DNA from: Acidimicrobiaceae bacterium
GTDB taxonomy: Bacteria; Actinomycetota; Acidimicrobiia; Acidimicrobiales; RAAP-2
Assembly (NCBI GenBank): GCA_003153575.1
Contig: PLZW01000038.1
Location: 805 to 64,804, forward strand
Direction of reading: 5' to 3'
Length of the DNA stretch: 64,000 nucleotides
This document shows, piece by piece, positions 21,394 to 50,732 of the stretch (position 1 is the stretch's first letter; every line of letters starts with the position of its first letter). Under the pieces are notes generated by a model, which saw only the letters and a list, made by a program, of their open reading frames with translations, was not told the DNA's origin and did no database searches. Made by a program: the position numbers and the translations under genes.

Positions 21394-22935
21394 GTGAGCC
21401 GGGTGTCACGGTGGAATCCGGCGGCGGCGGTGGCCGGATCGTGGGGGCACTTCCGGCGACGTCCCCGTGGCACCCAGATCCGGACGGTGGTGATGGTGGG
21501 AGCAGTCCTGATCGGGACCTCGGTGTGGGTGGCCTCGGCGCCGACGAGCGCCTCGCCTCCGAGCGCCACGGGAGCGGGCAACCCGAACGGCTCCGCCGGT
21601 GCCGGGCCCGGTGCCGGACCGGTTCCGGTCGAGCGGGCGAGCACGTCCTCGCGCGGGGTGTCCGCCACCGCCATCAACGTGGTCTTCCCGGTGGTCGCCC
21701 TCAACTCCCTGGCCGGCAAGTTGGGCTTCGCCCAGGATGTCGAGTACGGGCAACAGGCCGAGGCCATCAACCTCTATGTGAACCAGATCAACCGGTCAGG
21801 CGGGATCAACGGTCGGCGGATCGATCCCATCATCACGTCCTACGACCCGGCCAGCGAGTCGGGCATGCGCGCCTTGTGCAAGACCTGGACCGAGGGTTCG
21901 CCGGCCGCCTTCGCGGTGGTCGACGGCCTCGGGGCGTGGACCGGTGACAACCAGCTCTGCGTCACCCAGGAGGGTCAGACCCCCTTCCTCGGGGAGTGGA
22001 CGACGGTCACCAACTGGACCGACCAGGGCTCCCCGTACCTGTGGTGGACCGGTCCCGACCAGTCCGCCATCCTCCGGGCCGTCGTCAGCTGGGGGCTCAG
22101 CGCCCACCTCCTCGGACACGGGCGCACGGTGGGGATCATCGCCGGAGACCGGGCCTCGGACCAGGCCGCCCTCAACGACGCCCTCCTGCCCGCACTGGCC
22201 AAGGCGGGCGTGCACCCGGTGGTCGAGACCATCGCCTCTGATCCGTCGGCCACCGCCACCACCGACAGCCAGGCACCGCTGATCGTCCAGCAGTTCCGGA
22301 GCGCCGGGGTCGACTCGGTCATCCCGCTGATACCGTTCAACGCCTTCTTCCCGGTCCTCCAGGCCGAGAGTGACCAGCACTACTTCCCCCGGCTCCTCCT
22401 CAGCGACTACGAGTCGAGCATCGAGTCGTCCCTCGGGCTGCTCCCGATCCCCTACGCCAAGGCCCTCAACGGGCAACAGGGGGTCACCACCGAGACCCTG
22501 GGCGGGATCGACGACGACCGGCCCCAGAGCCAAGGCGGCTACGACCCCGGACTGCGGAGCTGTTGGACGCCGTGGCACGCGGCGTACCCCCAGATCCCTC
22601 CCGGGACCCTGTCCTTCTACATCGAGGAACAGGGACCGATCGCCCTGTGGTGCCAGGCCATCCGCCTGTTCGCCGCCGCCGCCCGGGCGGCAGGACCCGA
22701 TCTCAACCGGCGCACGTTCGTGACGGCCATGTCCCACGTGACCGGGTTCCCCGGGACGAACAGCCCGGTACTGAGCTACGGGCCGGACAAGCGGTTCGGT
22801 CCGACCAGCTACCAGGTGGTCCGACTGCACATCAACTCGCCGCTGTCGACCCAGTGCGCCTTGCCCAAGAACCGCATTCCCCAGGTGACCTGCTGGGTGC
22901 AGGTGCAGCCGTTTACCCCTCTGCCCCCTCCGTGA
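21394..22935 (+). CDS. Secreted ABC substrate-binding protein, Leu/Ile/Val-binding (type 1 PBP) family, orphan
   Basis: ORF 21109..22935 trimmed to GTG 21394 (GGGGGAG SD 4 nt upstream). It has a signal peptide (RRRPRGTQIRTVVMVGAVLIGTSVWVASA), a low-complexity linker, then AINLYVNQINRSGGINGRRIDPIITSYD. Confidence 0.8.
   Translation: MSRVSRWNPAAAVAGSWGHFRRRPRGTQIRTVVMVGAVLIGTSVWVASAPTSASPPSATGAGNPNGSAGAGPGAGPVPVERASTSSRGVSATAINVVFPVVALNSLAGKLGFAQDVEYGQQAEAINLYVNQINRSGGINGRRIDPIITSYDPASESGMRALCKTWTEGSPAAFAVVDGLGAWTGDNQLCVTQEGQTPFLGEWTTVTNWTDQGSPYLWWTGPDQSAILRAVVSWGLSAHLLGHGRTVGIIAGDRASDQAALNDALLPALAKAGVHPVVETIASDPSATATTDSQAPLIVQQFRSAGVDSVIPLIPFNAFFPVLQAESDQHYFPRLLLSDYESSIESSLGLLPIPYAKALNGQQGVTTETLGGIDDDRPQSQGGYDPGLRSCWTPWHAAYPQIPPGTLSFYIEEQGPIALWCQAIRLFAAAARAAGPDLNRRTFVTAMSHVTGFPGTNSPVLSYGPDKRFGPTSYQVVRLHINSPLSTQCALPKNRIPQVTCWVQVQPFTPLPPP

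Positions 22936-23863: not shown

Positions 23864-23880
<17 letters not shown>
22978..23880 (+). CDS. Phytanoyl-CoA dioxygenase (PhyH) family protein
   Basis: 300 aa, with HADFGNH (HxD) and a later YHRG. Confidence 0.75.
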
Positions 23881-30817: not shown

Positions 30818-32167
30818 GTGCAGATCACCATCGTCGGGGGCGGCAGCTACCAGTGGACGCCGGAGTTGCTCGCCGACCTGTTGGGCACCGAGTCCCTGCG
30901 AGGCGCGCGCGTGGTCCTGGAGGACGTCGATCCGGCACCGTTGACCAAGATGGAGGCGCTGGGTCGCAAACTCGACGAGGCCATGGGGTCGGGGTGCAGC
31001 ATCGTCACCACCACCGACCAGCGTCGGGCGCTCGAGGGCGCCGACTTCGTGATCGTGACCATCTCCACCGGGGGCTTCGACTCCATGGAGGTCGACATCG
31101 ACGTGCCCGCCCGCTACGGCATCCGTCAGTCGGTGGGGGACACGGTGGGCCCGGGTGGGATCAACCGCTCGCTGCGCAACGTCCCGGTGCTGGTGGGGCT
31201 GGCCCGCGACATGGCCGAGGTGTGCCCCGACGCCTGGATGCTCAACATCACCAATCCGATGACCTGCCTGACCCGGGCCGTGTGCCGGGAGACGCCGGTC
31301 CGGGCGGTCGGTCTGTGCCACGAGGTCGGCAACTGGACGATGGACCTGGCCATCGCCCGGGGTCGACCGGCCGAGTCCGTACGGGCCACCGTGGCCGGGG
31401 TCAACCACCTGCCGATCGTCACCGAGCTGACCGTCGACGGCGATGACGGGTTCGCCATCCTCGAGGAGATGGTGGCCGAGGCCGGTGGACTGGACGCCCT
31501 GGCCGACCGGGAGGGCCAGGCAGAGGCCGAGCCCTTCTCCCATCTCGACTTCGTCCGCCGCCACGTCCTCGCGCTCACGTTCCTGGACCGGTTCGGCGCG
31601 CTACCGGCCGCCGGCGACCGCCACGTCGCCGAGTTCGTGCCCTGGGCGCTTACCGAGTCGTCCGCCTGGGGCGCGGCGTACAACGTCGAGCTGACGCCCA
31701 TGTCCGACCGGCGTGCCCACCAGGCCGGGTACATCGCCGATGTCGACGCCTGGGTGGCCGGGACGAAGGACCTCCAGACCTGGGCCTCGGGGGAGCTGCC
31801 CGCCCTGGTCATCGACTCGCTCGTGACCGGTACGCCCCGCGAGCTGCCGGTCAACATCCCCAATGCCGGCCAGGTGCCGGACGTGCCCGACGACGCGGTG
31901 GTCGAGTCGATCTGTGTGGTCGACGAGAAGGGGATCCGCGGACGCGACCGGGCCGTCCTGCCGGCCGCGTTGGCCGAGCTGGTCCGTCGGCACGCGGCGG
32001 TCACCGAGCTGACGTTGGATGCCGCCCTGTCCGGGGACCCGGGACTGGCCTCTTCGGCCTTCCTGCTCGACCCGTTGGCCGGACGCGGGGACCTGCACCG
32101 GACCGAGGCGATGGCCACCGAGCTCCGGGTCGGCACCGCCAGGTGGCTGCCGCAGTTCGCCGCATGA
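30818..32167 (+). CDS. GH4 family NAD/Mn-dependent glycosidase
   Basis: GTG start giving VQITIVGGGSYQW. Motifs: NITNPM, GLCHEV. Confidence 0.88.
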   Translation: MQITIVGGGSYQWTPELLADLLGTESLRGARVVLEDVDPAPLTKMEALGRKLDEAMGSGCSIVTTTDQRRALEGADFVIVTISTGGFDSMEVDIDVPARYGIRQSVGDTVGPGGINRSLRNVPVLVGLARDMAEVCPDAWMLNITNPMTCLTRAVCRETPVRAVGLCHEVGNWTMDLAIARGRPAESVRATVAGVNHLPIVTELTVDGDDGFAILEEMVAEAGGLDALADREGQAEAEPFSHLDFVRRHVLALTFLDRFGALPAAGDRHVAEFVPWALTESSAWGAAYNVELTPMSDRRAHQAGYIADVDAWVAGTKDLQTWASGELPALVIDSLVTGTPRELPVNIPNAGQVPDVPDDAVVESICVVDEKGIRGRDRAVLPAALAELVRRHAAVTELTLDAALSGDPGLASSAFLLDPLAGRGDLHRTEAMATELRVGTARWLPQFAA

Positions 32168-32196
32168 CGCCGGCTGCCGCTCCGGGAGAGGACTCC

Positions 32197-33105
32197 ATGC
32201 GACTCGGCTTCATCGGGCTCGGGGCCATGGGCCTCCCCATGACTCGGCACCTGCTCGAGGCCGGTCACCAGGTGACAGTGGCCTCGCGCAGCCGGGGGCC
32301 GATCGACCGGGCCGTCTCGCTCGGGGCGACCGAGGGTGCTGGGCCGGCCGCCGTGGCCGGTGGCGCCGATGTCGTCTTCCTCTGTGTGCCCAGCTCCCCG
32401 CAGGTGGCCGAGGTGGTGACCGCCATGCTCCCCGACCTCGGTCCGGGCAAGGTCGTGGTCGACTGCTCCACCATCGATCCCGAGGTGGAACGTCGCCAGC
32501 ACGACCTGGTGACGGCCACCGGAGCCGGATTCCTCGAGGCACCGCTGTCCGGAGGCACGGCCGGGGCCGAGGCGGGCACGCTCACCTTGATGGTCGGAGG
32601 CGACGAGGTGACCCTCGAGCAGGTCCGACCGGCCATGGACCCCTTCGCCGGACGGATCATCCATGTCGGCGGGCCGGGCATGGGCCAGGTAGTCAAGCTC
32701 TGCAACAACCTGATCTACGCCGCGCAGATGCTGGCCACCGCCGAGGCCACCGCCCTGGCCGTCAAATCCGGGGTCGACCCGGGCAAGCTCCACGAGGTGC
32801 TGTCCAACGCCACCGGCGACTGCGTGGCCGTGCGCACCCGGCTCCCGGTACCCGGGGTGCTCCCGGCCAGCCCCGCCTCCAACGGCTGGCAGCCGGGATT
32901 CATGACCGACCTGATGGCAAAGGACCTCGACCTGGCCCTGGCCTACGGGGTGGACGTCGGGGTGCCCCTCGCCTCGACGGCGGTCGCCCGTCAGGTGCTC
33001 ACCGCGGCGTCGGTGGCGGGGTACGGCCGGGAGGACTTCTCGTCGCTGGCCAAGGTGGTCTTCGCCCTCTCGGGTATCGCCGGGAACGGCGGGGGGGAGG
33101 GGTGA
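32197..33105 (+). CDS. NAD(P)-dependent 3-hydroxyisobutyrate/tartronate-semialdehyde reductase-like dehydrogenase
   Basis: ORF 32143..33105. ATG 32197 has a GGGAG SD 8 nt upstream and gives MRLGFIGLGAMG. ATG 32164 (ATGA overlap with GH4) is an alternative start. Confidence 0.88.
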   Translation: MRLGFIGLGAMGLPMTRHLLEAGHQVTVASRSRGPIDRAVSLGATEGAGPAAVAGGADVVFLCVPSSPQVAEVVTAMLPDLGPGKVVVDCSTIDPEVERRQHDLVTATGAGFLEAPLSGGTAGAEAGTLTLMVGGDEVTLEQVRPAMDPFAGRIIHVGGPGMGQVVKLCNNLIYAAQMLATAEATALAVKSGVDPGKLHEVLSNATGDCVAVRTRLPVPGVLPASPASNGWQPGFMTDLMAKDLDLALAYGVDVGVPLASTAVARQVLTAASVAGYGREDFSSLAKVVFALSGIAGNGGGEG

Positions 33106-33884
33106 CGGGCCCCGGTCCGCCGCCGGCTCCGGCCGGCCTCGTGCCGCCGTCGATCATCCTGGCGGCCGACCACCGCGCCCGCGGGGTGGCCACCATCGAG
33201 CGGTACGCCGACTACCTGGCCGCGGTCTCGGCGGCACTGGCGCACTGCGACGGAGTCCTGGCCACCGCCCAGCCCCTGGGCGACCTGGCCGCGGCCGGGG
33301 CCATCGGCCCGGGACAGCGCACGTATCTGTCGCTCAACCGGACCGGGCTGGCCGGCTCGGCCTTCGAACTCGACGACCGGCTGGTGGCCAGTGTCGAGCG
33401 GGCCGCCCGCGACGGGTGGACCGGGGTCAAGTTGATGACCCGGATCGCCACCGACGACCCCGGAGGGGCGGCCGCCCTCGAACTGCTCGGCCGGGTCCTC
33501 GAAGAAGCTCGGGCCGTCGGCCTCGAGGCACTGGTCGAGCCGGTCCGGTGGCGGGACGGGACCATGTCCCGGGCGACCGACGACGTGGTCCTCGCCGCCG
33601 TCATCGCCCACGACCTCGGCGCCCCGTTGCTCAAGGTGCCCGTGCCCGATGCCGTCCCCGGGACGGCGCGGGCGGAGGCGGTCCGGCGCGTGGTGGACAG
33701 CGTGGGCGTCCCGGTCCTCTTCCTCGGCGGGCCGCGCCGGGACGCGACCGGGGACGCCGCGTCGTTGGCCCACGACGTCATGGACGGCGGTGGTGCCGGC
33801 CTGGCCGTCGGACGGTTGGTGATCGAGGACCCGGACCCGGCCGGTATGGCCGAACGTCTCGCCGCCGTCGTCCACGACCGGTGA
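33102..33884 (+). CDS. Class I aldolase-type TIM-barrel protein (DeoC/FbaB-like; possibly the Cgl0159-like family)
   Basis: Tail of ORF 32019..33884 starting at GTG 33102 (GTGA overlap, GGGGGGGAGGG SD). Motifs: IILAADHRARG, GVKLMTRI, LVEP, LKVPVP. Confidence 0.65.
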   Translation: MTGPGPPPAPAGLVPPSIILAADHRARGVATIERYADYLAAVSAALAHCDGVLATAQPLGDLAAAGAIGPGQRTYLSLNRTGLAGSAFELDDRLVASVERAARDGWTGVKLMTRIATDDPGGAAALELLGRVLEEARAVGLEALVEPVRWRDGTMSRATDDVVLAAVIAHDLGAPLLKVPVPDAVPGTARAEAVRRVVDSVGVPVLFLGGPRRDATGDAASLAHDVMDGGGAGLAVGRLVIEDPDPAGMAERLAAVVHDR

Positions 33885-35353
33885 TCCTCACCTTCGACCT
33901 CGGCACCACCGTCACCAAGGCGGCGTTGTGGGATCGGAACGGGATGGTCGGCCTGGCCGAGATCGGCATCGTGACCGACCATCCGGCACCCGGGTGGGCG
34001 GAGCAGGACCCGACGCAGTGGTGGGCGTCCACGGTCGAGGCGTGCGGCCGGCTGGCCGGCGAGACGTCGCAAGGGCTCGACAGGGTCACGGCCATCGGGT
34101 GCACCGGGGCCCGCCAGACCTTCGGCCTGTTCGACGCCGGCGGCGGGCCGCTCGGACCCGGCATCCTGTGGGCGGATCGACGGGACCTCGGCGACGCCGG
34201 CGGGGGTCCATCGAGGTGGCTCGACGACGTCGACGACGCATCGGGAACCCCTCCCGACGGCGGTTCGGTGCCGGCCAAACTGGCGTGGACGGCACGCCAC
34301 CGGCCGACCGACTGGGAGCGCACCGCCTGGGTCCTCGCTCCCCGCGACCTCGTCGTGTGGCGCCTGACCGGCCGGCCGGTCACCGATCCCACCCTGGCCT
34401 CGTGCTCGGGCCTCTACGACGCCGACGGACAGATTGCCGGGTCTCACGAGCACATGGCCGACCGGCTCCCGGCGGTGGTGCCTTCGGGTGAGGTGACCGG
34501 TGAACTCGGTCGGGAGGCGGCGGATGCGCTCGGGCTCGGAAGCGGCCTCCCGGTGGTGGTCGGCGCCGGCGACCGGGCCTGCGAAGTCCTCGGGACCGGG
34601 GCGACGCCGACGGGACCCATGGTCAGCTGGGGTACGACAGCCAACGTCTCACTGCCCATCGAGGATCCTCCGCCCGGTCGGGGGCACCTGGTCGTCACCC
34701 GGGCGGCCGACGGGGGGTGGCTGCTCGAGGGCGGGCTCTCGGGGGCGGGCTCGTTGCTGGCCTGGCTGGGCACGGTGTGCGGGCACTCGCCGGCCGAGCT
34801 CGCCACCCTGGCCGCGGCGTGCCCTCCCGGCGCCCGCGGTGTCACCGCCGCCCCCTGGATGGACGGAGCCCGGGCCCCCTGGTGGCGACCAGACGCCGCC
34901 GCCGCCTTCGTCGGCCTGAGCGGCGCCCACGGCCCCACCGAGTTGGCCCGGGCCGTCTTCGAGGCGGTGGCCCGGGACGTGGTCCGCTGCTTGGCGGTGG
35001 CGGGGGAGTGCCGACCCTCCGTCCCTCCGCCCGCGGTACTCCACCTGGCCGGTGCCGGTGCATCGGCACCGGTCTGGCAGGACGTGCTGTCCGGGATCTC
35101 CGGTCTCCCCGTCGACCGGCGTCGCTCGGGCCAGGCGGCCTCCGCCGGTGCCGCCCTCCTGACTGCGGGCGCGGTCGGCGACGGGTGGGATCTGGACCGG
35201 CTCGACCCGGTGGTGGAGCGGTCGACACCCGATCCCGCCATCGTCGAGCAGTACGACAGGCTTCGCGACGGTGCCGACCACGTGGCGGCCACCCTGGTCG
35301 AGCTGGGGACTGCCGGACCGGTGGGATCGACGGGACCGTCGACGTGTTGGTGA
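33881..35353 (+). CDS. FGGY family carbohydrate kinase
   Basis: Tail of ORF 33416..35353 starting at GTG 33881 (GTGA overlap). Motifs: ILTFDLGTTVTKAALWD, HPAPGWAEQDP. Confidence 0.85.
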   Translation: MILTFDLGTTVTKAALWDRNGMVGLAEIGIVTDHPAPGWAEQDPTQWWASTVEACGRLAGETSQGLDRVTAIGCTGARQTFGLFDAGGGPLGPGILWADRRDLGDAGGGPSRWLDDVDDASGTPPDGGSVPAKLAWTARHRPTDWERTAWVLAPRDLVVWRLTGRPVTDPTLASCSGLYDADGQIAGSHEHMADRLPAVVPSGEVTGELGREAADALGLGSGLPVVVGAGDRACEVLGTGATPTGPMVSWGTTANVSLPIEDPPPGRGHLVVTRAADGGWLLEGGLSGAGSLLAWLGTVCGHSPAELATLAAACPPGARGVTAAPWMDGARAPWWRPDAAAAFVGLSGAHGPTELARAVFEAVARDVVRCLAVAGECRPSVPPPAVLHLAGAGASAPVWQDVLSGISGLPVDRRRSGQAASAGAALLTAGAVGDGWDLDRLDPVVERSTPDPAIVEQYDRLRDGADHVAATLVELGTAGPVGSTGPSTCW

Positions 35354-36597
35354 CGTTGGCCTACGGCGCCGACGGACTGTCGATCGACGTGCCGGACGAC
35401 GCCGTGGTGGTGAACGGTGAGGAAGCGCCTCCGCTGCAGGACGAGGCGGAAGCCATCCGCCGGGCGCTGGCCGCACCGTTGTCCGGACCGGCCCTGGCGG
35501 ACCTGGTGGGGAAAGGGGAGACCGTGGCCGTGGTCTTCCCCGACCTGACCCGGCCGATGCCCAACACCACGGTGCTACCGCCCCTGCTGGCCGAGCTCGC
35601 ACGGCTGGGCGCCGGTCCCGATCGGGTGGAGCTGCTGTGCGCCACCGGGACGCACCGCCAGGCCACACCGGAGGAACTGTCGAACCTGCTCGGCCCGGAC
35701 CTCGTTAGCCGCTACCGGATCCACGACCACCGGGCCGACGACGACGACCACGTCGACGTCGGAGCGGTCGACGGTGCCCGCATCCTGCTCGACCGTCGCT
35801 ACCTGGCCGCCGACGTGCGGATCGTGACCGGCTTCGTCGAGCCGCACTTCTTCGCCGGGTGGAGCGGGGGACCGAAAGCGGTGTGCCCCGGGCTGGCGGC
35901 CACCTCGACCATCCTCGAGGCGCACAGCCCGGCCCGGATCGCCGACCCCGCCGCCACGTGGCTCACCACCGCGGGCAACCCGGTCCACGAGTTCGTCACC
36001 CGGGCGACCGCACTCTGCCCGCCGGACCTCGCCGTCGACGTCACCCTCGACCGTCGGCGCGGCCTGACCGGCGTGTTCGTGGGAGCGCTCCCGGACGGGC
36101 ACCGCGAGGCCTGCGCCTTCGCCGAACGCACGGTCACCACCGTGGTCGATGGTCCCTTCGAGGTGGTGGTCACCACCAACGGCGGCTACCCGTTGGACCG
36201 CAACCTCTACCAGGCGGTCAAGGGCCTGGCCGCGGCCGAACGGGTGGTGGCCGGTGGCGGGACGATCATCCTGGCCGCCGCCTGCCTGGACGGTGTCCCC
36301 GACGGGGGCGCCTTCGCCGGGCTTCTCGCCGGTGCCACCGACGCCGCCTCCCTGGCCCGACCCGGCGGTCCCGCCCGGGTCGATGGTTGGCAGGCCCAGG
36401 TGCTGGGCCGGGTCCTCGAGCGGGCCGAGGTCTGGGTCCGGTCGGACGGGGTGACCGACGACGAGGTCCGGACGGCGCTCATGAACCCGGTGGACGACGT
36501 GTCCGCCGCGGTCCGACAGGCCCTGGACCGCCACGGGCCGGGGGCCCGGGTGTGCGTACTGCCCCGCGGCCCGCTGGCGGTGGCCTCCCTCCTTTAG
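35350..36597 (+). CDS. LarA (nickel-pincer cofactor-dependent 2-hydroxyacid racemase/epimerase) family protein
   Basis: Tail of ORF 34717..36597 starting at GTG 35350 (GTGA overlap; GTG 35344 is an alternative). Motifs: FPDLTRP, CATGTHR, VEPHFFAGWSGGPK-x15-H. The spacing H102/H166/K176/H192 matches H108/H174/K184/H200 of lactate racemase. Confidence 0.85.
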   Translation: MTLAYGADGLSIDVPDDAVVVNGEEAPPLQDEAEAIRRALAAPLSGPALADLVGKGETVAVVFPDLTRPMPNTTVLPPLLAELARLGAGPDRVELLCATGTHRQATPEELSNLLGPDLVSRYRIHDHRADDDDHVDVGAVDGARILLDRRYLAADVRIVTGFVEPHFFAGWSGGPKAVCPGLAATSTILEAHSPARIADPAATWLTTAGNPVHEFVTRATALCPPDLAVDVTLDRRRGLTGVFVGALPDGHREACAFAERTVTTVVDGPFEVVVTTNGGYPLDRNLYQAVKGLAAAERVVAGGGTIILAAACLDGVPDGGAFAGLLAGATDAASLARPGGPARVDGWQAQVLGRVLERAEVWVRSDGVTDDEVRTALMNPVDDVSAAVRQALDRHGPGARVCVLPRGPLAVASLL

Positions 36598-36686: not shown

Positions 36687-38891
36687 ATGGCCGACCAGGT
36701 GCGGTTCGACTTCGCGGTTCCCGACGAGCTGTTGTCCGAGGTCGTAGCTAAAGGCCGCCATAGCGAGGCCATCGCCGACCTGGCCGTGATGCCCGGCACG
36801 GGCGAGGGCAAGCCCCCGCCGCTGGCCGGGATCCTCCGTCAGTACGGGTACGCACCCCTGGCGTTGCTGACGGCTGCGGCCATCGTCCCCAACACGTTCG
36901 GCAACGGGATCTCGCTCATCGGCAACAACCTCGAGCACTCGTTCCACATCCACGATGCGGCGTTGGGTGCCCTCACCTTCGCAGCCGCCGTAGCGCAGCT
37001 GTTGTGGGCGGTGCCGCTCGCCTTGTGGGCGGACCGGGGGAGCCGCAAGGTGGTGGCCGGGGTGGCCCTCCTGATCTTCTCCGTGGTCGCGCCGTTGATG
37101 GCGCTCGCCACCAACGTGTGGACGTTCACGTTCTTGTACCTGATCGCCTCGGTGGGATTCAACGTGAGCGAGACCGTCCACAACTCGTACCTGTCCGACG
37201 CCTATCCGATGGAGGGGCGCGGACGGATCTTCAGTTGGCACAACCTCTCGGATCCACTGTCCCTCACCATCGGCATCCTGATCTTCGGACTGGTGGTGAC
37301 CGTCGGGCACAGCTGGCGGTGGGGCATGCTGATCCCCCTGGCCGGGATCCCCATCGCCCTGGCGGTGTTCACGCTGCGCGAGCCGGACAAGGGCCAGAAC
37401 GAATCGAGCCACATCTTGAAGGCGTCGGGGATGGACCTCCACAGCCAGCAGGAGGAGGCCCCCCGGGTGCTGCTCGGATCGGCGGTCACCCGCCTGCTCC
37501 GTATCCGCTCGATCTACTACGAACTGGCCGCAGTGGCCATCCTGGGGTTCGCCGGCACCGGCGGACCCCTGTTCGGCAACCTCTACTTCGTCCGTCGGTG
37601 GGGGCTCGACACCGCCCAGAGGAGCGAGGTCTACGCCATCATCGGGCTGGCCGCGTTCGTCGGCCTCCCGGTCGCCTACGTGCTCGGGGACCGCATGTTC
37701 CGTCGGGCTCCGGAGCGGCCGCTCGTGATCGCCGCGGGGTGCATCACGGCCTACGGCGTGCTGTTCGTCACCTCGCTCTACATGCCCCAGCTGTGGATGG
37801 TCGTCACCCTCCAGCTGCTGGCCAGTGCGGCCATCTCGCCGTTGGCCATCTGCATCTTCCTCACCCTCGCCGCCACGGCCCCGGCCGAGATGCGGACCAT
37901 CTGCTTCGCCATGTTCGGCGTCTACGCCCTCGTGTTCGGCGGCTTCGCCGGTGGCGTCCTGCTCGGCGCGGTCAGCGACGCGGCCGGCTACCTCCACGGC
38001 CCCACCGTCGCCCTCACGCTGATCGGACCGGTCTGCGTGGTCGGCGGGATCATGCTCCTCCTCGGGTCGCGGCACGTGAAGCGCGACATCACGATGGTCA
38101 TCGAGGATGTTCTGGAGCGCCACGCCGAGGGACAGCGCCGCCAGGCCGGGCATGCCGTGCCCGCCCTGCAGGTCCACAACCTCGACGTCTTCTACGGCGA
38201 CAACCAGGTCCTGTTCGACGTCGACTTCGAAGTCGCCCCCGGTGAGATCGTGGCCCTGCTCGGCACCAACGGCGCCGGCAAGTCCACCCTGCTCCGGACG
38301 GTGGCCGGGCTGCAGCACCCGCACCGCGGGGTGATCCGCATCGCGGGGGTCACGTGCACCTACCTCGAACCCGAGCAGATCATCGACCGGGGCGTGGCCC
38401 TCCTGTTGGGCGGGAAGATGACCTTCCCCGGGCTGACCGTGCAGGAGAACCTCCATATCGGTGCGTACTCCATGCGCCGAGACCGTGCCCGGTCAGGAGG
38501 GGCGGTGGCCGAAGCGCTCGATCGCTTTCCGGAGCTGGCGGCCAAGCTCCGCCAACCGGCCGGCACCCTCTCGGGCGGGGAGCAGCAGATGCTGGCCCTG
38601 GCCCGGGTCATGATCACCGGTCCCGACCTGCTCCTGATCGACGAACTGGCATTGGGCCTGGCCCCGATGGCGGTCGACCGGTTGACGGACCTGATCCGCG
38701 AGGTCAACGGGGCGGGCACCACGGTCGTCCTGGTGGAACAGAGCGTCAACCGGGCCATGACCCTGGCCCGCCGGGCCGTCTTCCTCGAACGGGGCGAGGT
38801 CCGCTTCGACGGCTCCATCGACGGCCTCCTCGAACGGCCCGACCTGTTGCGACCGGTCTTCCTCGGTGCGGCGACGGACGGCCTCGGGTAG
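36687..38891 (+). CDS. Fusion protein: N-terminal 12-TM MFS-like domain plus C-terminal LivF-type ABC ATPase
   Basis: A single 734-codon ORF. It has twelve hydrophobic segments with a central hydrophilic loop, then Walker A GTNGAGKST, signature LSGGEQQML, and Walker B LLLIDELALGL. Confidence 0.85.
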   Translation: MADQVRFDFAVPDELLSEVVAKGRHSEAIADLAVMPGTGEGKPPPLAGILRQYGYAPLALLTAAAIVPNTFGNGISLIGNNLEHSFHIHDAALGALTFAAAVAQLLWAVPLALWADRGSRKVVAGVALLIFSVVAPLMALATNVWTFTFLYLIASVGFNVSETVHNSYLSDAYPMEGRGRIFSWHNLSDPLSLTIGILIFGLVVTVGHSWRWGMLIPLAGIPIALAVFTLREPDKGQNESSHILKASGMDLHSQQEEAPRVLLGSAVTRLLRIRSIYYELAAVAILGFAGTGGPLFGNLYFVRRWGLDTAQRSEVYAIIGLAAFVGLPVAYVLGDRMFRRAPERPLVIAAGCITAYGVLFVTSLYMPQLWMVVTLQLLASAAISPLAICIFLTLAATAPAEMRTICFAMFGVYALVFGGFAGGVLLGAVSDAAGYLHGPTVALTLIGPVCVVGGIMLLLGSRHVKRDITMVIEDVLERHAEGQRRQAGHAVPALQVHNLDVFYGDNQVLFDVDFEVAPGEIVALLGTNGAGKSTLLRTVAGLQHPHRGVIRIAGVTCTYLEPEQIIDRGVALLLGGKMTFPGLTVQENLHIGAYSMRRDRARSGGAVAEALDRFPELAAKLRQPAGTLSGGEQQMLALARVMITGPDLLLIDELALGLAPMAVDRLTDLIREVNGAGTTVVLVEQSVNRAMTLARRAVFLERGEVRFDGSIDGLLERPDLLRPVFLGAATDGLG

Positions 38892-38897
38892 GCGACG

Positions 38898-40889
38898 GTG
38901 TCGATCCCCGGATTCGTCCTGGTCCAAGGGGCGGTCACCGGCCTGATCTATGGGCTGCTGGCCATGGGCCTGGTGCTCATCTACCGGTCCAACCGGGTGC
39001 TCAACTTCGCCCAGGGCCAACTCGGGGTGGTGGCGGCCGTCTTCCTGGTCAAGTGCTACTACGACTTCGGGTTCAACTACTGGTTCGCCCTGGCCCTGGC
39101 CCTGGCCCTGGCCGTCGCCATGGGGTCATTGAGCGAGCTGCTGCTCCGACGGCTGTCCACCCGACCCCGGGTCCTGGTCATGGTGGCCACCATCGGGCTC
39201 AGTCAGGTCCTCTTCGTCTTCACCGCCCTGCCGTTCATCCGGCCCAAGAGCCTCTTCCGGGCCTTTCCCGTCCCGATCGACCTCAGCTTCCACGTGGGGA
39301 CGTACCTGTTCACGCCGGGAGAGGCCCTGGCTCTCATCGCCGCACCGTTGGTGGCGCTGGGCCTGGTGGCCTTCGTGCGGTGGTCGCCGTGGGGCCTGGC
39401 CATGCGGGCCACCACCGAGAACAGCGATTCGGCCCGCCTCTCGGGGGTGTGGGTCCGGCGCACGTCGAATGTGGCCTGGATGCTGGCCGGCCTGCTCTCG
39501 GCCTTCACGGCCATCCTGGCCGCACCGGGCCAGACGTCGTCGCTGACCGAGGTGCTCAATCCCGAGCTGCTGCTGTTGGCCCTGACCGCGGCCATGGTCG
39601 GGGCCATGGTGAACCTGACCACGGCCTTCATAGCGGCCATCGGCGTGGGCGTGATCCAGGAGATCCTGGTGTGGAACCTCCACAGCACTGCCCAGGTCGA
39701 CCTGGTCCTCTTCCTGATGGTGTCGGCGGTGCTGCTGGTGCGGATCGCCGCCCTGCAGTTCGGCGGGGGCGGCGACGCCACCATCGCCTGGCCGGAGGAG
39801 TCCCGGGCCGCCGTGCGCGTACCCGATGCCCTGCGGCGACGGGTCTCTTCGACCGGTGTCGTCGCCACGGTGGTGGTGGTGGCCCTGTTGCCACTGGTGA
39901 TCAGCACCGGGCGGTCGTTCCTGCTCTCCCAGATCTGCATCTACGCCATGGTCGCCCTGTCGCTGACGGTGCTCACCGGATGGGCCGGCCAAGTGTCGCT
40001 CGGGCAGTTCGGGCTGGTGGCCTGCGGTGCGCTGGTGGCCACCCATCTCGGCTCCAGCGTTCCGCTGGTCCTGCTCCTCCCTTTCGCCGGTGCCGTCACC
40101 GCGGTGATCGCCGTGGTGATCGGCCTGCCCGCTCTCCGGGTGCGCGGGCTCTATCTGGCCGTCAGCACCCTGGCCTTCAGCCTGTGGTTCATGCAGTCGG
40201 TGCTCGCCACCCCGTGCTGGACCGCCCCCGTGGTGGGCCGGCTGCTGTGCACGGGCCTGCCCAACCCGGAGTCGACGTTGCTGGCCCGGCCCAGCTTCCT
40301 CGGGTTGAGCCTCCAGTCGGAGCGGGCCTTCGCCTGGTTCTCGCTGGCCGTCCTGGTGGCCACCATCCTGATGGTCCAGATGTGGCGTGACCGCGGCGTG
40401 GCCCGTCGGTTGATCGCCGTCCGGGACAACGAGATCGGGGCGGCCGCCATGGGGGTGCCCGTGGCCCGGACCAAGTTGCTGGCGTTCGCCCTCTCGGGGT
40501 TCATCGCCGGATACGCCGGCGTCTGCCTGGCATTCGCCACCCAACGGATCTCGACGGCCACCTTCGATCCCACCCTCTCCATCCTGGCCGTCTCGATGGT
40601 GGTCATCGGCGGGCTGGGCTCGGTCAGCGGGGCCGTCCTGGGCGCGCTCTACCTGGTCGGACTGCCCGCCCTGGCCGGCACCACGCCGACCATCCAGTTC
40701 CTGACCAGTGGCCTCGGACTCCTGGTGTTCATCCTCTACCTGCCCGGCGGTCTGGCCGAGCTGCTGCACCGGTTCGGCGATCTGGTGACCGATGGCATCC
40801 GGAACCTCCGGAGCGAACGGCATCCGGGCTCCGGTGGCGACACTGCCGGTGCCGGGGACGTACCGGTGGCCGGGGGCGTCACCGGATGA
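38898..40889 (+). CDS. Fused LivH-LivM type branched-chain amino acid ABC permease
   Basis: 663 aa with a GTG start. It has two permease halves (LNFAQGQLGVVAAVF... and GQVSLGQFGLVACGA...). Confidence 0.88.
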   Translation: MSIPGFVLVQGAVTGLIYGLLAMGLVLIYRSNRVLNFAQGQLGVVAAVFLVKCYYDFGFNYWFALALALALAVAMGSLSELLLRRLSTRPRVLVMVATIGLSQVLFVFTALPFIRPKSLFRAFPVPIDLSFHVGTYLFTPGEALALIAAPLVALGLVAFVRWSPWGLAMRATTENSDSARLSGVWVRRTSNVAWMLAGLLSAFTAILAAPGQTSSLTEVLNPELLLLALTAAMVGAMVNLTTAFIAAIGVGVIQEILVWNLHSTAQVDLVLFLMVSAVLLVRIAALQFGGGGDATIAWPEESRAAVRVPDALRRRVSSTGVVATVVVVALLPLVISTGRSFLLSQICIYAMVALSLTVLTGWAGQVSLGQFGLVACGALVATHLGSSVPLVLLLPFAGAVTAVIAVVIGLPALRVRGLYLAVSTLAFSLWFMQSVLATPCWTAPVVGRLLCTGLPNPESTLLARPSFLGLSLQSERAFAWFSLAVLVATILMVQMWRDRGVARRLIAVRDNEIGAAAMGVPVARTKLLAFALSGFIAGYAGVCLAFATQRISTATFDPTLSILAVSMVVIGGLGSVSGAVLGALYLVGLPALAGTTPTIQFLTSGLGLLVFILYLPGGLAELLHRFGDLVTDGIRNLRSERHPGSGGDTAGAGDVPVAGGVTG

Positions 40890-41794
40890 GCGACCCGGAT
40901 CCGCACACGGCGTCCGCAGGGCCGGCCCATCTGGACGTGACCGGCGTGTCGGTCCGCTTCGGCGGGGTCGAGGCGCTCGACGGGGTCGACCTGGTGGCCG
41001 AGCCCGGGTCGATCGTGGGCCTCATCGGACCCAACGGGTCCGGCAAGACCACGTTGCTCAACGTGATCTCGGGTCTCGTCCATCCGAGCCACGGCTCCGT
41101 CCGACTCGACGGCGAGGCGCTCGATGGCTACCTGCCCGAGGAGCGGGCCGGCGTCGGTGTGATCCGGTCGTTCCAGGACTGCCGCCTCTTCCCGGACCTC
41201 TCGGTCCGTGACGTCCTGTTGGTGGCCCTCGACGCGCACCGCCCGGTGGGGGTGGCGGCCTCCACCCTCCAGATGCCTTGGGCCCGACGGTCCGAGCGGG
41301 AGAAGCGCTCCGACGTCGAGCGGGTGATCGAGTCCTTCCGGATCGGGCCGTTCCGGCACCACCGGATCTCCCAGCTGTCGACCGGCACCCGGCGGGTGGT
41401 CGACCTGGCCTCCATCGTCCTCGCCCGGCCCCGCCTGCTGCTGCTCGACGAGCCGACAGCCGGCATCGCCCAACGCGAGGCGGAAGCCTTCGGCCCGTTG
41501 CTGTCCCGTCTCCGCGACGTGGCCGACACCACCATCGTCCTGGTCGAACACGACGTCCCGCTGGTCTTCGCCCTGTGCACCCAGGTGGTCATGGTGGCGT
41601 CGGGGCGGGTGGTGTCCTCGGGCACGCCGGACGAGGTGGCGGCCGATCCCCGTGCGGTGGCCGCCTATCTGGGGGCCAGCGAGTCAGCCCTGGCCGTGTC
41701 GGGCGCCCGGCCCGGGGTCGGGTCAGTCCCGGGCGGGCATGGCCGGGCCGAAGGGGACGTCCCCGCACAAGGTGACCCGGTGGGCGATGCGTAA
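40886..41794 (+). CDS. LivG-type ABC ATPase
   Basis: ATGA overlap with the permease gene. Motifs: Walker A GPNGSGKTT, LSTGTRR, Walker B LLLLDEPTAGI, and a family-typical AAYLG near the end followed by a ~35-aa tail. Confidence 0.88.
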   Translation: MSDPDPHTASAGPAHLDVTGVSVRFGGVEALDGVDLVAEPGSIVGLIGPNGSGKTTLLNVISGLVHPSHGSVRLDGEALDGYLPEERAGVGVIRSFQDCRLFPDLSVRDVLLVALDAHRPVGVAASTLQMPWARRSEREKRSDVERVIESFRIGPFRHHRISQLSTGTRRVVDLASIVLARPRLLLLDEPTAGIAQREAEAFGPLLSRLRDVADTTIVLVEHDVPLVFALCTQVVMVASGRVVSSGTPDEVAADPRAVAAYLGASESALAVSGARPGVGSVPGGHGRAEGDVPAQGDPVGDA

Positions 41795-42583
41795 CTCGTC
41801 GCCGTAGTCGTCGAGGGCGTAGTGGAGCGTGGCCCGGTTGTCCCAGAAGGCCACCGAACCCGGCCGCCACCGGAAGCGGCAGGTGAGCTCCGGCTGTTGG
41901 CAGTGGCGGTACAGCATGGCGAGGATGGCGTCGCTCTCGTTGGTGGAGCACCCGAGGATGGTTTTGGTGAACTGGGGGTTCACGAACAGACCCTTCCGAC
42001 CGTTCTCGGGATGGGTGCGGACCACCGGGTGGATGGCGGGCAGCAACTTGTCGATGTGCACCCCCATCCATTCGAAGCCGCCCCGCTCGTCGACGTCGGC
42101 CGCGAACCAGGGGTCGTGGTGGACGGCGATCAAGGTGTCGCACATGGCGCGGACCGGCTCGGCCAGTCGGTCGTAGGCGTCCTGGAGGCTGGCCCACGTG
42201 GTGTCGCCCCCGACCTCGGGACAGGTGGCCATGTAGAGGATCGAGCCCATGGGCGGCGTCTGCAGGAAGGTCACGTCGGTGTGCCACCAGTTGGCCCGGT
42301 CGTCGCGGCCGTCGATGGCCAGCACCTCGGGTGCGCCCTCGAGGGCGGGGATGACCGGGTGACCCTCGGTGGGCGTGCCGAACTGCCGGGCGAAGTCGGC
42401 CTGTTGGGTCGGGGAGAGCTCCTGGTCGCGGAAGAAGACGACGTGGTGGGCGTTGAGCGCGGCCCGGACCTGGCCGATGGCCAGGTCGCTCAAGGGGCGT
42501 GACAGGTCGAGGCCGAAGAGCTCGGCGCCGATCAGGGGCGAGAGGGGCCGTACCTCCACCTCCTGCCCGACCGTGTCCGTCAC
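41723..42583 (-). CDS. TauD/TfdA family Fe(II)/2-oxoglutarate dioxygenase
   Basis: 286 aa. Motifs: WHTDVTF (HxD), WDNRATLH, RVTLCGDVP. Confidence 0.92.
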   Translation of the reverse strand: MTDTVGQEVEVRPLSPLIGAELFGLDLSRPLSDLAIGQVRAALNAHHVVFFRDQELSPTQQADFARQFGTPTEGHPVIPALEGAPEVLAIDGRDDRANWWHTDVTFLQTPPMGSILYMATCPEVGGDTTWASLQDAYDRLAEPVRAMCDTLIAVHHDPWFAADVDERGGFEWMGVHIDKLLPAIHPVVRTHPENGRKGLFVNPQFTKTILGCSTNESDAILAMLYRHCQQPELTCRFRWRPGSVAFWDNRATLHYALDDYGDELRIAHRVTLCGDVPFGPAMPARD

Positions 42584-45854: not shown

Positions 45855-46300
45855 TGGCCCATCCCTACTACCCGTCCGGAGTGCCTCGACTCAACCACGT
45901 GGCCATGAGCCTCGACGCCGGCATGCTCGACGCGTCGCACCGCAAAGAGATCTGCCAGTTCTACAGCGAGGTGTTCGGCTTCGAGGAGCTCGACATGTTG
46001 ACGGAGGATCGGCGACGACTGGTGCTCTCGTGTGTCCACTGGGACCAGTTCCTCTTCCTGATCGCCGACGACCAGGCCATGCGCTGCCCCCGGATGGACC
46101 ATTTCGGTTTCTCGGTGGGATCCCTGCAGGAGCTGACCGACCTCCGTGACCGGGCGGCCGCGTTCGGGGCCCATGACGACCGGGTCGACCTCATCGACTA
46201 CGCCGTCGACGACCAGGCGGTCATAAAGATCCACTCGTTCTACGTGGGGTACCTGTTGCCGATGATGGTCGAAGTGCAGTGGTGGGAGTTCACATCGTGA
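45854..46300 (+). CDS. VOC family protein
   Basis: 148 aa from ATG 45854 (TGATG junction). Motifs: LNHVAMSL, DHFGFSVGS. Confidence 0.7.
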   Translation: MAHPYYPSGVPRLNHVAMSLDAGMLDASHRKEICQFYSEVFGFEELDMLTEDRRRLVLSCVHWDQFLFLIADDQAMRCPRMDHFGFSVGSLQELTDLRDRAAAFGAHDDRVDLIDYAVDDQAVIKIHSFYVGYLLPMMVEVQWWEFTS

Positions 46301-47277
46301 CCGGTGACCTGCAGATCGGGGTCTTCGTCCCCCAAGGCTGGAAGACCGAGTACACCGGGTGGTCCGGGCCCGACGCCTGGGACCGTTCGGTGGAGCTGGC
46401 CGTGCTGGCCGAGTCGCTCGGCTACGACCACCTGTGGGTGTACGACCACGTCGAGACGGTGCCGGAGCGTCGGCCGACCCACGTGTTCGAGGCCTTCACC
46501 ATGCTGGCGGCGCTGTCGCAGCGCACCACCCGGGCGGGACTGGGCCAGTTGGTGACGTGTGCCTCGTACCGCAACGCCGGGCTGCTGGCCAAGGAGGCCG
46601 CCTGCGTGGACGTCTACTCGGGCGGCAGGCTGATCCTCGGGCTGGGGGCGGGCTGGTTCCACCAGGAGTACCACGCCTATGGCTACGACTACCCGTCGGA
46701 TCGCCACCGACTGACCGTGCTGGACGAGACACTCCAAGTCGTGCGGTCCCTGTGGACCGAGGAGACGACCACGTTCAAGGGCGAGCACCTGGTCTTCGAC
46801 GGGGCGTTCTGCGATCCCAAGCCGATCCAGCAGCCGCCTCCGCTACTGGTGGGTGGGGGAGGGGAGCAGGTCACGCTGCGCATCGCCGCCCGGCAGGCCG
46901 ACCTGACCAACTGGCAGGTCGGGCTCGAGGCCTTCATCCGCAAGTCGGGCCTGCTCGAGCAGTACTGCGAGGAGGCCGGTCGCGAGTTCTCGTCCATCAC
47001 CCGGACCCACGGACCGGACTGCCGGATCTTCGACACCGAGGCCGAGTGCCTGGCCTGGTGCGAAGCAGAAGGTGGAGGCAACCTGTGGGGTGGCGAGTCC
47101 ACCGACTCCTACCTCGCTGACAACCTGGTGGGGACGGTCGAGCAGGTGGCCGAGAAGTCGCAGGCCTTCGTCGACGCCGGCTGCCGAGGACTCATCCTCT
47201 GGCTGCGGGACTATCCGGCCGACGAGACGCTGCGGCGGTTCATGGGCGAGGTCGTACCGATGCTGCGGGTGCCGTAG
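46297..47277 (+). CDS. LLM class (F420-dependent-type) oxidoreductase
   Basis: GTG 46297 (GTGA overlap, GGGAG SD). Motifs: GYDHLWVYDH, LGLGAGWFHQEY. Confidence 0.88.
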   Translation: MTGDLQIGVFVPQGWKTEYTGWSGPDAWDRSVELAVLAESLGYDHLWVYDHVETVPERRPTHVFEAFTMLAALSQRTTRAGLGQLVTCASYRNAGLLAKEAACVDVYSGGRLILGLGAGWFHQEYHAYGYDYPSDRHRLTVLDETLQVVRSLWTEETTTFKGEHLVFDGAFCDPKPIQQPPPLLVGGGGEQVTLRIAARQADLTNWQVGLEAFIRKSGLLEQYCEEAGREFSSITRTHGPDCRIFDTEAECLAWCEAEGGGNLWGGESTDSYLADNLVGTVEQVAEKSQAFVDAGCRGLILWLRDYPADETLRRFMGEVVPMLRVP

Positions 47278-47327
47278 TCGAGTCGTGGGCTTTGTCGGTA
47301 GGCGAGTGGCGGTCGGGATGATCCCCT

Positions 47328-48272
47328 TCAGCCAGGAATCGATCCTCGATAGGCGGCGATACCTGTGATCGGATCAGCGAGTGCCTTCCCCGCCATCGAA
47401 CCGCCGAACGGAGCAGCTCCGAAAGAGAACACGCCGCCATCGGTGGCCGCCAACCAGTAGCCCTTGCCATCAGGTGATCCGGCAATGCCGACAATCGGGG
47501 CATTCAGCCGCGTGCCACCCATCGACCCCGCATACGTGGCATCACCAAATGAAAAGACTCCACCGTCCGACGCCGCCAGCCAATATCCCTTGCCGTCCGG
47601 CGTGGCGGTGATGCCCACGATCGGAGCATTGAGCGATTTGTCTCCCATCGAACCGGCGAATTCGGCGTCCCCGAAGGCGAACACTCCTCCGTCGGCGCCG
47701 ACCAACCAGTAGCCCATGCCGTCCGGGGTCGCGGCGATCCCGACTACCGGCGCATTGAACCGCAAGGTGGTCGGTCCGCCAGGGAGCGGCTTCACGTCGC
47801 CGCATCCCAAGACGAGACCGAGTTGGGATGCCAGCCAGTAGCCGGCGCCGGAGTTGGACGAGGCCGATCCGGCCCAATTGCTCTCGGGCTGGTAACCCGG
47901 TTGATTGAGGACGGCTCATGCACTCGATGACGGCTGAGGGCCAGCTTGCCCGAAGGGGAAGGCTGGGAGGTCCCAGAGATTGACGAGCCAGTACCCGGAG
48001 CCAGACGGAGTTGGGGCAATGGCCGTACAGAACACACGCTGGTAGTTGTACAGCACGGGCGGAGGGAAGCCGCATGACGAGCCCTGCGCAGCCGAGGGTG
48101 TGCCCGATCCGTAGAACGGTGCATTGAACGCAAAGACTCCGCCGTCACCGCCGACCAGCCAGTAGCCAGGGACCGTCGGCGGCGCCCCGGCCCCCCCTTC
48201 TGTCGGTGCCATCAGGACAGCGGCCAGTAGACCCACCACGACCACCGTCAATGTCCACCGAACCATCCGCAT
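47328..48272 (-). pseudogene. Secreted 42-aa-repeat (GYWL...DGGVF.FGDA) protein interrupted by one in-frame TGA at 47916..47918
   Basis: ORFs 47916..48323 and 47328..47810 share one frame and are separated only by that TGA. ATG 48272 has a GAGGGG SD and a signal peptide (MRMVRWTLTVVVVGLLAAVLMAP). The downstream part has no signal peptide of its own. Confidence 0.6.
47379..47756 (-). repeat. Three tandem 126-nt (42-aa) coding repeats
   Basis: NAPVVGIAATPDGMGYWLVGADGGVFAFGDAEFAGSMGDKSL / NAPIVGITATPDGKGYWLAASDGGVFSFGDATYAGSMGGTRL / NAPIVGIAGSPDGKGYWLAATDGGVFSFGAAPFGGSMAGKAL. Confidence 0.9.
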
Positions 48273-48447
48273 TCCGCACCCCTCAGCCTCAGCCCCTTGG
48301 TGAGGGTACTTCCTGCGAATCATGGCAGGCCATAGCGGCTAGCACCTGGTGTTGCACACCTCACAACCATTGGATGGATTGCGAGTCGGCTGAACGGTGA
48401 CGTCGCCACTACTCAGATGTGATTGCCAGACCGTCCTGTGAACGAAG

Positions 48448-49272: not shown

Positions 49273-49493
49273 GCCGTGATTCCCCTCTGATCAGGAGACC
49301 ATTGCCGGACATCCAGCTTCGATCCAGTGCCTCTGGGTGCCCGTCCTCTGGTCTTCCGGCCCGCCGAGCTCGGGTCTCGGTGGGCCGCTCCGAACCCCTC
49401 ACGGCGAGGATAACGAGATCCCGCGGTCGAGGCTAGGGCGTTCGCCGTGGTGAGGTCCTTGTGGCCGTTCCCGGTTCGGCCTGCCTGGTTCTG

Positions 49494-50084: not shown

Positions 50085-50123
50085 GGCCTGTTTCTAGCAG
50101 GTCACCCGAGCCTCCCACCTGGG

Positions 50124-50269
50124 CCTGCAGATCCTCACGGCGAACCGATCGGTGCCCTGGTCCATCGACACGTCCAACGACACGTTCCCGTGCGACCGGC
50201 AAACCCGTCGAGTTCGTGCGAACGTATCTGGTCGGATGACCGAATCGCCGACCATCGAGGATCTGCAGG
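50124..50269. repeat. 13-bp perfect inverted repeat (CCTGCAGATCCTC at 50124..50136; GAGGATCTGCAGG at 50257..50269) enclosing 120 bp
   Basis: Read and reverse-complemented by hand. It lies in the 244-bp divergent spacer between the GNAT and SnoaL-like genes. Confidence 0.85.
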
Positions 50270-50328
50270 TCCGACAGTCAGCCGGCATCCGGGGCACGTC
50301 TGCTCCATGCCAGGGAGGCAGGTGACCA

Positions 50329-50706: not shown

Positions 50707-50732
50707 GGCAACTCCCATGGGCAACCCATTGC

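Follow-up and report, generated by a model that had tools for sequence, protein, structure and literature searches.

What is a complete secondary transporter doing on the ATPase of a bacterial importer? The question is raised by a 64,000-nucleotide stretch of an Acidimicrobiaceae genome (assembly GCA_003153575.1, contig PLZW01000038.1), here called the window as a whole, in which one gene encodes a major facilitator superfamily (MFS) domain joined to a LivF-type ATPase domain, with the permease and second ATPase of a Liv-type ATP-binding cassette (ABC) importer encoded immediately downstream. The two largest transporter superfamilies, ABC (powered by ATP) and MFS (powered by gradients), are treated as mechanistically separate. 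We find that the fusion is real, that its architecture spans at least two classes of Actinomycetota, and that the transporter is a complete four-part ABC importer, substrate-binding protein (SBP) included, with an extra MFS module tethered to it covalently. The three adjoining genes and the segments of the fusion product are as follows:

36687..38891, plus strand: MFS-LivF fusion gene, 734 aa and a stop codon, an open reading frame (ORF) without interruption
36687..36836, plus strand: N-terminal cytoplasmic extension (residues 1-50), with a PGxG-type motif before transmembrane helix 1 (TM1)
36837..38072, plus strand: 12-TM MFS domain (residues 51-462), with motif A at D116-R117-x-x-R120
37383..37511, plus strand: central cytoplasmic loop of the MFS domain (residues 233-275), with short helices at 237-246 and 263-272
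38073..38165, plus strand: linker (residues 463-493), which in the model forms a single long helix (464-486) between TM12 and the ATPase domain
38166..38888, plus strand: LivF-type nucleotide-binding domain (residues 494-734)
38898..40889, plus strand: fused LivH-LivM permease, 663 aa, with two BPD_transp_2 stretches (196.7 bits in total)
40886..41794, plus strand: LivG-type ATPase, 302 aa, ABC_tran and BCA_ABC_TP_C, in an ATGA overlap with the permease gene

A first reading made from the letters alone (the sequence-only reading) had described 36687..38891 as a single unbroken ORF of 734 codons, with six plus six hydrophobic segments split by a hydrophilic loop (REPDKGQNESSHILKASGMDLHSQQEEAPR) and, after a linker, a LivF-type Walker A motif (GTNGAGKST), signature (LSGGEQQML) and Walker B motif (LLLIDELALGL). 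All of this stands. Pfam assigns residues 74-419 to MFS_1 (E = 1.7e-25; 90.2 bits, where the gathering score is 33.4) and residues 510-653 to ABC_tran (E = 1.2e-27; 97.6 bits), so that the domain order is twelve-helix MFS, helical linker and LivF-type ABC ATPase, and relatives with the same architecture confirm that the fusion is genuine. The hydropathy profile, with its peaks and two weaker segments, gives a 6+6 arrangement divided by the loop; the three motifs are present as described; and the N-terminal domain, which the same reading had expected to score as MFS, does so above the Pfam threshold and finds a fold match in SPNS2. Third-position G+C is 0.92 both in this ORF and in that of 38898-40889, a level typical of real genes in this window, where G+C overall is about 70%.

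The most prosaic account of such a gene would be that a sequencing or assembly error near 38100-38200 joined an MFS gene to livF. A homology search of 5.8 billion proteins with the fusion protein returned more than 120 clusters 72-99% identical to it, nearly all of exactly 734 aa and sharing the same frame, from independent metagenome and genome assemblies labelled Acidimicrobiales. The linker at the junction is itself conserved and under purifying selection (77% identity; ratio of nonsynonymous to synonymous substitution rates, dN/dS, 0.10-0.39), with D467 nearly invariant, and the fusion is kept at 30-45% identity and in the finished genomes of cultured Embleya. Because the fusion is conserved across independent assemblies and at least two classes, a missed stop codon or frameshift can be set aside for practical purposes.

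The reach of the family became clearer from an exhaustive HMMER scan of 1.84 billion cluster representatives (50% identity), from which the best 150 clusters were counted. Approximately 100 of these 150 span both the MFS and the ATPase domain at 30-45% identity, and fusions continue to the end of the list, in size classes of about 700-760 aa and about 1000-1060 aa. By Pfam the long class is MFS-LivF-LivG, and a third class is LivHM-LivF-LivG without MFS. A tblastn search of plasmid records placed the fusion in Embleya sp. NBC_00888, and a homology search from the Embleya protein opened a further large subfamily that includes Embleya hyalina, E. scabrispora, Nocardia sp. NPDC005746 and many Acidimicrobiia; the cluster members of 20 distant representatives included no organism beyond the Acidimicrobiales. 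The architecture is not confined to the assembly in which it was first read, and the family is already abundant in databases under automatic names (JGI among them). Other fusions within it join LivF to LivG as tandem ATPases, LivHM to LivG, or LivHM to LivF and LivG in chains of 1135-1294 aa that hold both permease halves and both ATPases (examples, under our own handles for loci and proteins, are L001 9986-11830; proteins P0248 and P0266; L086 10267-13179; and L089 9129-12239).

Does the MFS domain look like a working transporter? We built a full-length AlphaFold2 model from a 40-sequence alignment (predicted local distance difference test, pLDDT, 88.3; predicted TM-score, pTM, 0.85) and a second model of the MFS part alone (pLDDT 83), and the helices in both fit a twelve-TM arrangement; residues 1-26 have low pLDDT, with a single helix at 13-25. 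Foldseek with the full-length model reported matches for the ATPase domain only, of which the top one was 1JI0 (39% identity, template modelling score, TM-score, 0.88), so the MFS-only model was searched separately. Against SPNS2, Spns1 and HnSpns it reached TM-scores of 0.74-0.82 over about 440 columns at about 15% identity; structure by structure, over 420-440 columns, the scores were 0.76/0.82 for SPNS2, 0.74/0.81 for Spns1 and 0.67/0.74 for DgoT, which ranks together with G6PT after the Spinster-type structures. HnSpns (6e8j) is also the best match of the domain by sequence in the PDB (E = 1.1e-7), and distant family members still score 40-141 bits with the Pfam MFS model.

The motif and selection data point the same way. 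Motif A reads WADRGSRK in the window protein; its residues D116, R117 and R120 are invariant in alignments of 7 and 8 sequences and are retained by 24, 32 and 38 of 40 diverse members, respectively, and motif A is kept, along with a pseudo-symmetric P399/R403 motif, down to about 23% identity. In the comparison with the 85%-identical ortholog of locus L081, the two MFS halves had a dN/dS of 0.08-0.10, the central loop one of 0.12 and the ATPase one of 0.18. As dS is near saturation, the ranking of these figures alone is trustworthy; by that ranking, purifying selection on the MFS domain is at least as strong as on the ATPase. The least conserved part of the protein is the N-terminal extension (dN/dS 0.25-0.48; 14% identity in distant members). 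Given the low dN/dS, the conserved motif A and P399/R403, and a full 12-TM fold that matches solved MFS transporters, the domain is intact and looks functional.

Such conservation sits uneasily with the idea that the MFS domain transports nothing and is instead an anchor or scaffold, providing a docking site for the SBP or LivHM, or a transceptor that senses substrate and tunes ATPase activity. Selection acts across all of the 12-TM domain and not just on a surface for interaction; the family as a whole conserves motif A and its counterpart in the C-domain, both of which serve in conformational switching; and a 460-residue, 12-TM domain would be a costly anchor for a subunit that already binds a permease. 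We therefore regard a non-transporting module as unlikely, although it would account for three observations. The SBP is membrane-anchored and not free; sister systems lack the MFS domain, as expected of an optional modulator; and the clade of the window protein does without the motif-B Arg and motif-C Pro kept by most members. In TM4 the window protein has Y151 at the position of the motif-B Arg, found in 21 of 40 family members, and in TM5 it reads S192...G196-I197...G201, where 24-25 of the 40 have Gly-Pro and most retain G-x3-G-P-x3-G.

The genes that follow supply the remainder of the translocator. The sequence-only reading had them as a 663-aa LivH-LivM permease and an LivG-type ATPase overlapping it by ATGA, which together complete a full ABC translocator beside the fusion, and both Pfam and the ORF coordinates agree. 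The permease ORF begins 6 nt past the stop codon of the fusion gene; NCBIfam places UrtB/LivH in its N-terminal half and UrtC/LivM in its C-terminal half, and a sequence search found no homolog of LivHM among solved structures. The top NCBIfam model for the 302-aa ATPase is LivG (198 bits, under the cut-off), and the best models for the LivF domain are UrtE (180.8 bits) and LivF (159.7 bits), both under their equivalog cut-offs. LivG has a Walker A motif (GPNGSGKTT), a Q-loop Gln, a Walker B motif (LLLLDEPTAGI) and an H-loop (VEHD), together with a non-canonical signature, LSTGTRRVV. In the LivF domain, Walker B contains D652-E653 and the switch reads VEQS, in which a Gln normal for LivF stands at the place of the H-loop His; the Q-loop position has neither Gln nor Glu, reading GGK where about 80 canonical LivF proteins read PEGR. 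The motifs of the subfamily compare with those of a control set of 80 ordinary LivGF loci, recovered via the generic LivF peptide GGEQQMLA, as follows:

LivG signature: LSTGTRR(I/V)V in the subfamily, LPYGxQRRL in canonical proteins
LivF Q-loop position: GG(K/R/A) in the subfamily, PEGR in canonical proteins
LivF Walker B: IDEL in the subfamily, LDEP in canonical proteins
LivF Walker A: GTNGAGKST in the subfamily, GANGAGK(S/T)T in canonical proteins

This pattern suggests one consensus ATP site, centred on LivG, in which the Q, D-E and H residues are present, and one deviant site, built on the MFS-tethered LivF. The deviant motifs run through the whole subfamily (L001 and L081-L091), and because they are found in L001, a sister system that has no MFS domain, they are not adaptations to it. 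Judged by these motifs, the transporter represents a distinct actinobacterial Liv-like subfamily. Separately, the C-terminal tail of LivG, some 35 residues rich in Gly, Ala and Pro, may be an over-extension or a low-complexity tail.

Where, then, is the binding protein? The sequence-only reading took the operon to be SBP-less, saw type-1 SBPs only as orphans at 21394 and 62943, and suggested, as one possible role, that the MFS domain might be a substrate-delivery module in place of the missing component. Such a module, capturing or delivering substrate, would act in the manner of the S-component of energy-coupling factor (ECF) importers. There is indeed no SBP gene inside the three-gene unit of the window, and ECF importers offer a precedent for a membrane-embedded capture module standing in for an SBP. 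The orthologous loci lead elsewhere, to a gene that the window also carries:

21394..22935, plus strand: cognate SBP, a divergent Peripla_BP_6 protein (Pfam E = 6.9e-20) with an N-terminal membrane anchor, IRTVVMVGAVLIGTSVWV

In L082 and L085, whose fusion proteins are orthologs 75% and 72% identical to that of the window, a Peripla_BP_6 gene lies immediately after livG, and its product matches the window SBP end to end (63% and 60% identity, respectively). The SBP of L081, the closest relative, is 70% identical and is encoded upstream, where its gene opens the same glycosidase cluster, just as the window SBP gene heads the same carbohydrate cluster about 13.7 kb upstream of the fusion gene; L084 has the gene order of the window, over a stretch that ends short of the SBP position. 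Members of the family that are 27-41% identical have a homologous SBP gene adjoining the fusion gene, directly upstream of it in L088, L089 and L091 and divergently transcribed in L086 (E values of 1e-10 to 1e-23 against the window SBP). An unannotated 397-aa gene occupies the SBP position in L090, L087 has a 615-aa protein weakly related to the SBP-like protein of L088 (E = 2e-4), and in the cultured Embleya and Nocardia loci an SBP or SBP-like gene is directly upstream of the fusion gene.

Because orthologous loci carry an SBP next to livG and the window has its ortholog, substitution of the SBP by the MFS domain fails, and we consider an SBP-less Liv system of the ECF kind very improbable. 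The claim of an SBP-less operon is refuted; Peripla_BP_6 proteins do exist at both of the positions named, but the one at 21394 is not an orphan. That protein has a Ser/Pro/Ala-rich linker after its membrane anchor and no classical cleaved signal, and in the SBPs of the family a low-complexity linker comes after either such an N-terminal anchor or a lipobox. The window SBP has no homolog among solved structures and no NCBIfam match, and its homologs in distant loci drop below Pfam detection.

Two neighbouring systems may be noted alongside. The second Peripla_BP_6 protein (62631-63998, plus strand) runs off the window end and is preceded by genes for an acyl-CoA dehydrogenase (59824-62136) and a MaoC dehydratase (62356-62787); being only marginally similar to the transporter SBP, it probably serves a different system, encoded past the end of the window. 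Divergent from the SBP gene at 21394 is an ABC-2 type exporter pair on the minus strand, consisting of an ATPase (20126-21178) and an ABC2_membrane protein (19290-20126).

The place of the MFS domain in this importer is clarified by L001, from another member of the Acidimicrobiales, which has an SBP-like homolog of the L087 type, LivHM and a LivF-LivG fusion, and no MFS. Since this sister system is complete without it, the MFS domain is an addition to an importer that is whole in itself. Of the 80 unrelated LivGF loci, just one had an MFS homolog near the liv genes, and there it was not adjacent to them.

What the importer carries may be sought among its neighbours, which in the window comprise the following:

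30818..36597, plus strand: upstream catabolic genes (Pfam and NCBIfam) for a glycoside hydrolase (GH) family 4 glycosidase, a HIBADH-like dehydrogenase, a Cgl0159/DhnA-type class I aldolase, a xylulokinase-like FGGY kinase and a LarA-like racemase
35350-36597, plus strand: the LarA-type nickel-pincer racemase, the gene just before the fusion gene (395 bits, where the lactate racemase cut-off is 460)
41723..42583, minus strand: TauD/TfdA-family dioxygenase (Pfam TauD E = 3.4e-65; 273 bits with the NCBIfam model for taurine dioxygenase, whose cut-off is 313)
26300-29110, plus strand: GH78 alpha-L-rhamnosidase, with a Tat signal (SRRQLL) and a lipobox (LVAAGC)

The same upstream gene order is found directly before the fusion gene in L081, L082, L084 and L085, and in L082 and L085 the order runs GH4, HIBADH-like dehydrogenase, Cgl0159/DeoC aldolase, FGGY kinase, LarA where present, MFS-LivF, LivHM, LivG and Peripla_BP_6; LarA occurs in L084 and L085 and is missing from the otherwise syntenic L081 and L082. 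The TauD-like gene, convergent with livG in the window and overlapping it at the 3' ends by 72 nt (41723-41794), is likewise near the transporter in all four loci. An esterase-like hydrolase gene also lies downstream of the transporter in the window. Beside the window SBP gene are genes for PhyH (22978-23880), GH13, ThuA, GH78 and GH1, of which the GH78 rhamnosidase is probably extracytoplasmic, because it has both a Tat signal and a lipobox. GH78 is present again in Embleya-type loci (L090 2427-4706 and L091 2908-5559, both on the minus strand), as is PhyH (L091 12084-13340), so that the two recur across two subfamilies sharing just 27-33% identity or thereabouts; L091 also encodes a rhamnulose-1-phosphate aldolase/dehydrogenase fusion. 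From this neighbourhood we infer that the substrate derives from a carbohydrate such as a rhamnoside, deoxy-sugar or glycoside, and is not a branched-chain amino acid.

A sulfoquinovose or other sulfonate substrate was also considered, an idea that came from the TauD-like gene, the dehydrogenase with its likeness to both HIBADH and sulfolactaldehyde (SLA) reductase, and the class I aldolase; nothing specific speaks for it, and the dehydrogenase scores best as HIBADH. An Rfam scan of the window from 20 to 47 kb found no riboswitch and no other RNA element. In L083 (ENA ERZ25039482 contig_14035), which is near-identical to L082, the GH4, aldolase, FGGY kinase and SBP genes are split and the three transporter genes are intact, which suggests sequencing indels or decay in that assembly. 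G+C is 0.61-0.68 at window positions 1-4000 and 46000-52000, against 0.70-0.75 elsewhere.

To what end, then, is the MFS domain attached? We lean, tentatively and with somewhat less than even confidence, towards a working permease that has its own translocation path, acts in the same catabolic route and is co-assembled with the importer. Twelve helices would leave both MFS termini in the cytoplasm, and the linker helix would set LivF beneath LivHM, with the MFS domain next to the permease in the membrane and the two in a 1:1 ratio. Uptake of a carbohydrate-derived substrate, probably related to a rhamnoside or deoxy-sugar, would fall to the ABC part, while the MFS part would work by alternating access, most likely expelling a by-product or aglycone; alternatively, it might offer the same substrate, or a related one, a second way in that is driven by protons. 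With the two parts fused, co-assembly would be assured, and regulatory signals may pass between them by way of the conserved central loop. In the MFS literature, motif C in TM5 (G-x3-G-P) is linked to antiporters and exporters, and the Spns/DHA-like character of the domain and the family-wide occurrence of this motif favour efflux, tempered by the loss of motifs B and C in the window clade.

Several observations weigh against a co-assembled but independent permease. With its motif-B Arg and motif-C Pro both replaced, the window protein offers a weaker case for an exporter; loci L086-L088 have no sugar genes beside the transporter, and gene neighbourhood is a narrow basis on which to assign a substrate. 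Others hint that the two domains are linked more tightly than co-assembly demands. The MFS domain is N-terminal to LivF in every architecture seen, MFS-LivF-LivG included, and as operon linkage suffices for co-expression, so strict an order hints at a mechanical or regulatory connection. The pTM of 0.85 may be read as implying a defined orientation of the MFS domain relative to the ATPase. MFS central loops are usually conserved poorly, whereas the loop here is the most conserved segment among orthologs (88% identical at 74% whole-protein identity, with a dN/dS of 0.12 in all three comparisons), which again hints at a closer tie between MFS and ATPase.

These last observations would suit an MFS domain that LivF, alone or within the LivG-LivF dimer, drives or gates via the central loop and the linker helix, making of the complex a primary-active or ATP-regulated MFS transporter beside, or together with, the LivHM pathway. 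The covalent order of the two domains, the conserved loop and a full-length pTM not easily attained unless the domains are oriented to each other in a defined way are all compatible with it, and the LivF-built ATP site, with its Q-loop Glu lost and LSTGTRR as the signature of its partner, would fit a regulatory role better than a purely catalytic one. Nevertheless, we think ATP coupling of this kind quite unlikely: an ABC ATPase driving an MFS fold has no known precedent, the deviant motifs are common to L001 with its lack of MFS, LivF has to dock on LivHM as well, completing the ABC translocator, and among distant members the loop (21% identity) loses its advantage over the remainder of the MFS domain (24%). 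A bolder version, which we hold to be decidedly improbable, couples LivF mechanically to its own MFS domain within an SBP-LivHM-LivG-MFS-LivF complex, so that ATP drives or gates the MFS domain or import and export become obligatorily coupled. If true, such an ATP-powered or ATP-gated MFS, or obligatory import/export machine, would be a transport mechanism for which no described precedent is known.

Comparison with known systems begins with the LIV-I/HAAT importers (LivJ/K-LivHMGF, TC 3.A.1.4, with UrtABCDE among them), which share with this transporter two BPD_transp_2 permease halves, a LivG with BCA_ABC_TP_C, a LivF/UrtE with the VEQ switch, and a Peripla_BP_6 binding protein. Unlike them, the present system has LivH and LivM fused and a 12-TM MFS domain at the N terminus of LivF; its LivG has LSTGTRR for LPYGxQRRL, and its LivF has GGK for PEGR and IDEL for LDEP; its SBP is very divergent and membrane-anchored; and its context is carbohydrate catabolism and not amino acids or urea. 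Because all NCBIfam scores fall below the equivalog cut-offs, we place the system with the HAAT/LIV-I importers at the level of the family, and its ATPases are not orthologs of LivF, UrtE or LivG.

The MFS half is most like the Spinster family (human SPNS2, Spns1 and the bacterial HnSpns, PDB 6E8J), with which it shares the 12-TM 6+6 fold and motif A. A match at about 15% identity speaks for an Spns/DHA-like MFS fold and not for the same substrate, and Spns proteins are, to our knowledge, stand-alone, with none fused to an ATPase. ECF (type III) importers combine an ABC ATPase pair with an extra membrane module and use no SBP, their S-component being a small 6-helix protein; the likeness is one of analogy only, as an SBP and a full LivHM are present here and there is nothing to replace. 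Dependence of secondary carriers on SBPs is familiar from the TRAP and TTT systems, and the SUR-Kir6.x ATP-sensitive potassium (KATP) channels and the regulatory domains on the importer ATPases MalK and MetN are precedents for an ABC ATPase that gates, or is gated by, something besides its own permease. None of the latter has what is seen here, an MFS domain fused covalently to the N terminus of a bacterial importer ATPase. A parallel in architecture is the Sensor Kinase-MFS fusion family of TCDB (2.A.1.34), in which an MFS domain is fused to a cytoplasmic module (PMC3924187). In the present case the partner of the MFS domain is an ABC ATPase, itself a subunit of a complete ABC importer.

The sequence-only reading knew of no characterised coupling of an MFS domain to an ABC ATPase, and this is borne out to the extent that the full-text literature yielded no paper on such a fusion; TCDB and InterPro lay outside that search, and an uncurated entry there is possible. 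As far as we found, therefore, the fusion family is uncharacterised, and it is mechanistically puzzling. Because a complete MFS domain is covalently tied to an importer ATPase in a large, selectively maintained family, a primary and a secondary transporter are implied to be joined stably in one physical complex at a ratio of 1:1. The Liv-like subfamily in question is previously unstudied, and soil and water Actinomycetota appear to have recruited it for the use of glycosides or deoxy-sugars. The existence of cultured carriers (Embleya and Nocardia) opens the role of the fusion to experiment. The possible lessons include uptake coupled to the efflux of a by-product, regulation of a facilitator by ATP and, at the extreme, MFS transport driven by ATP.

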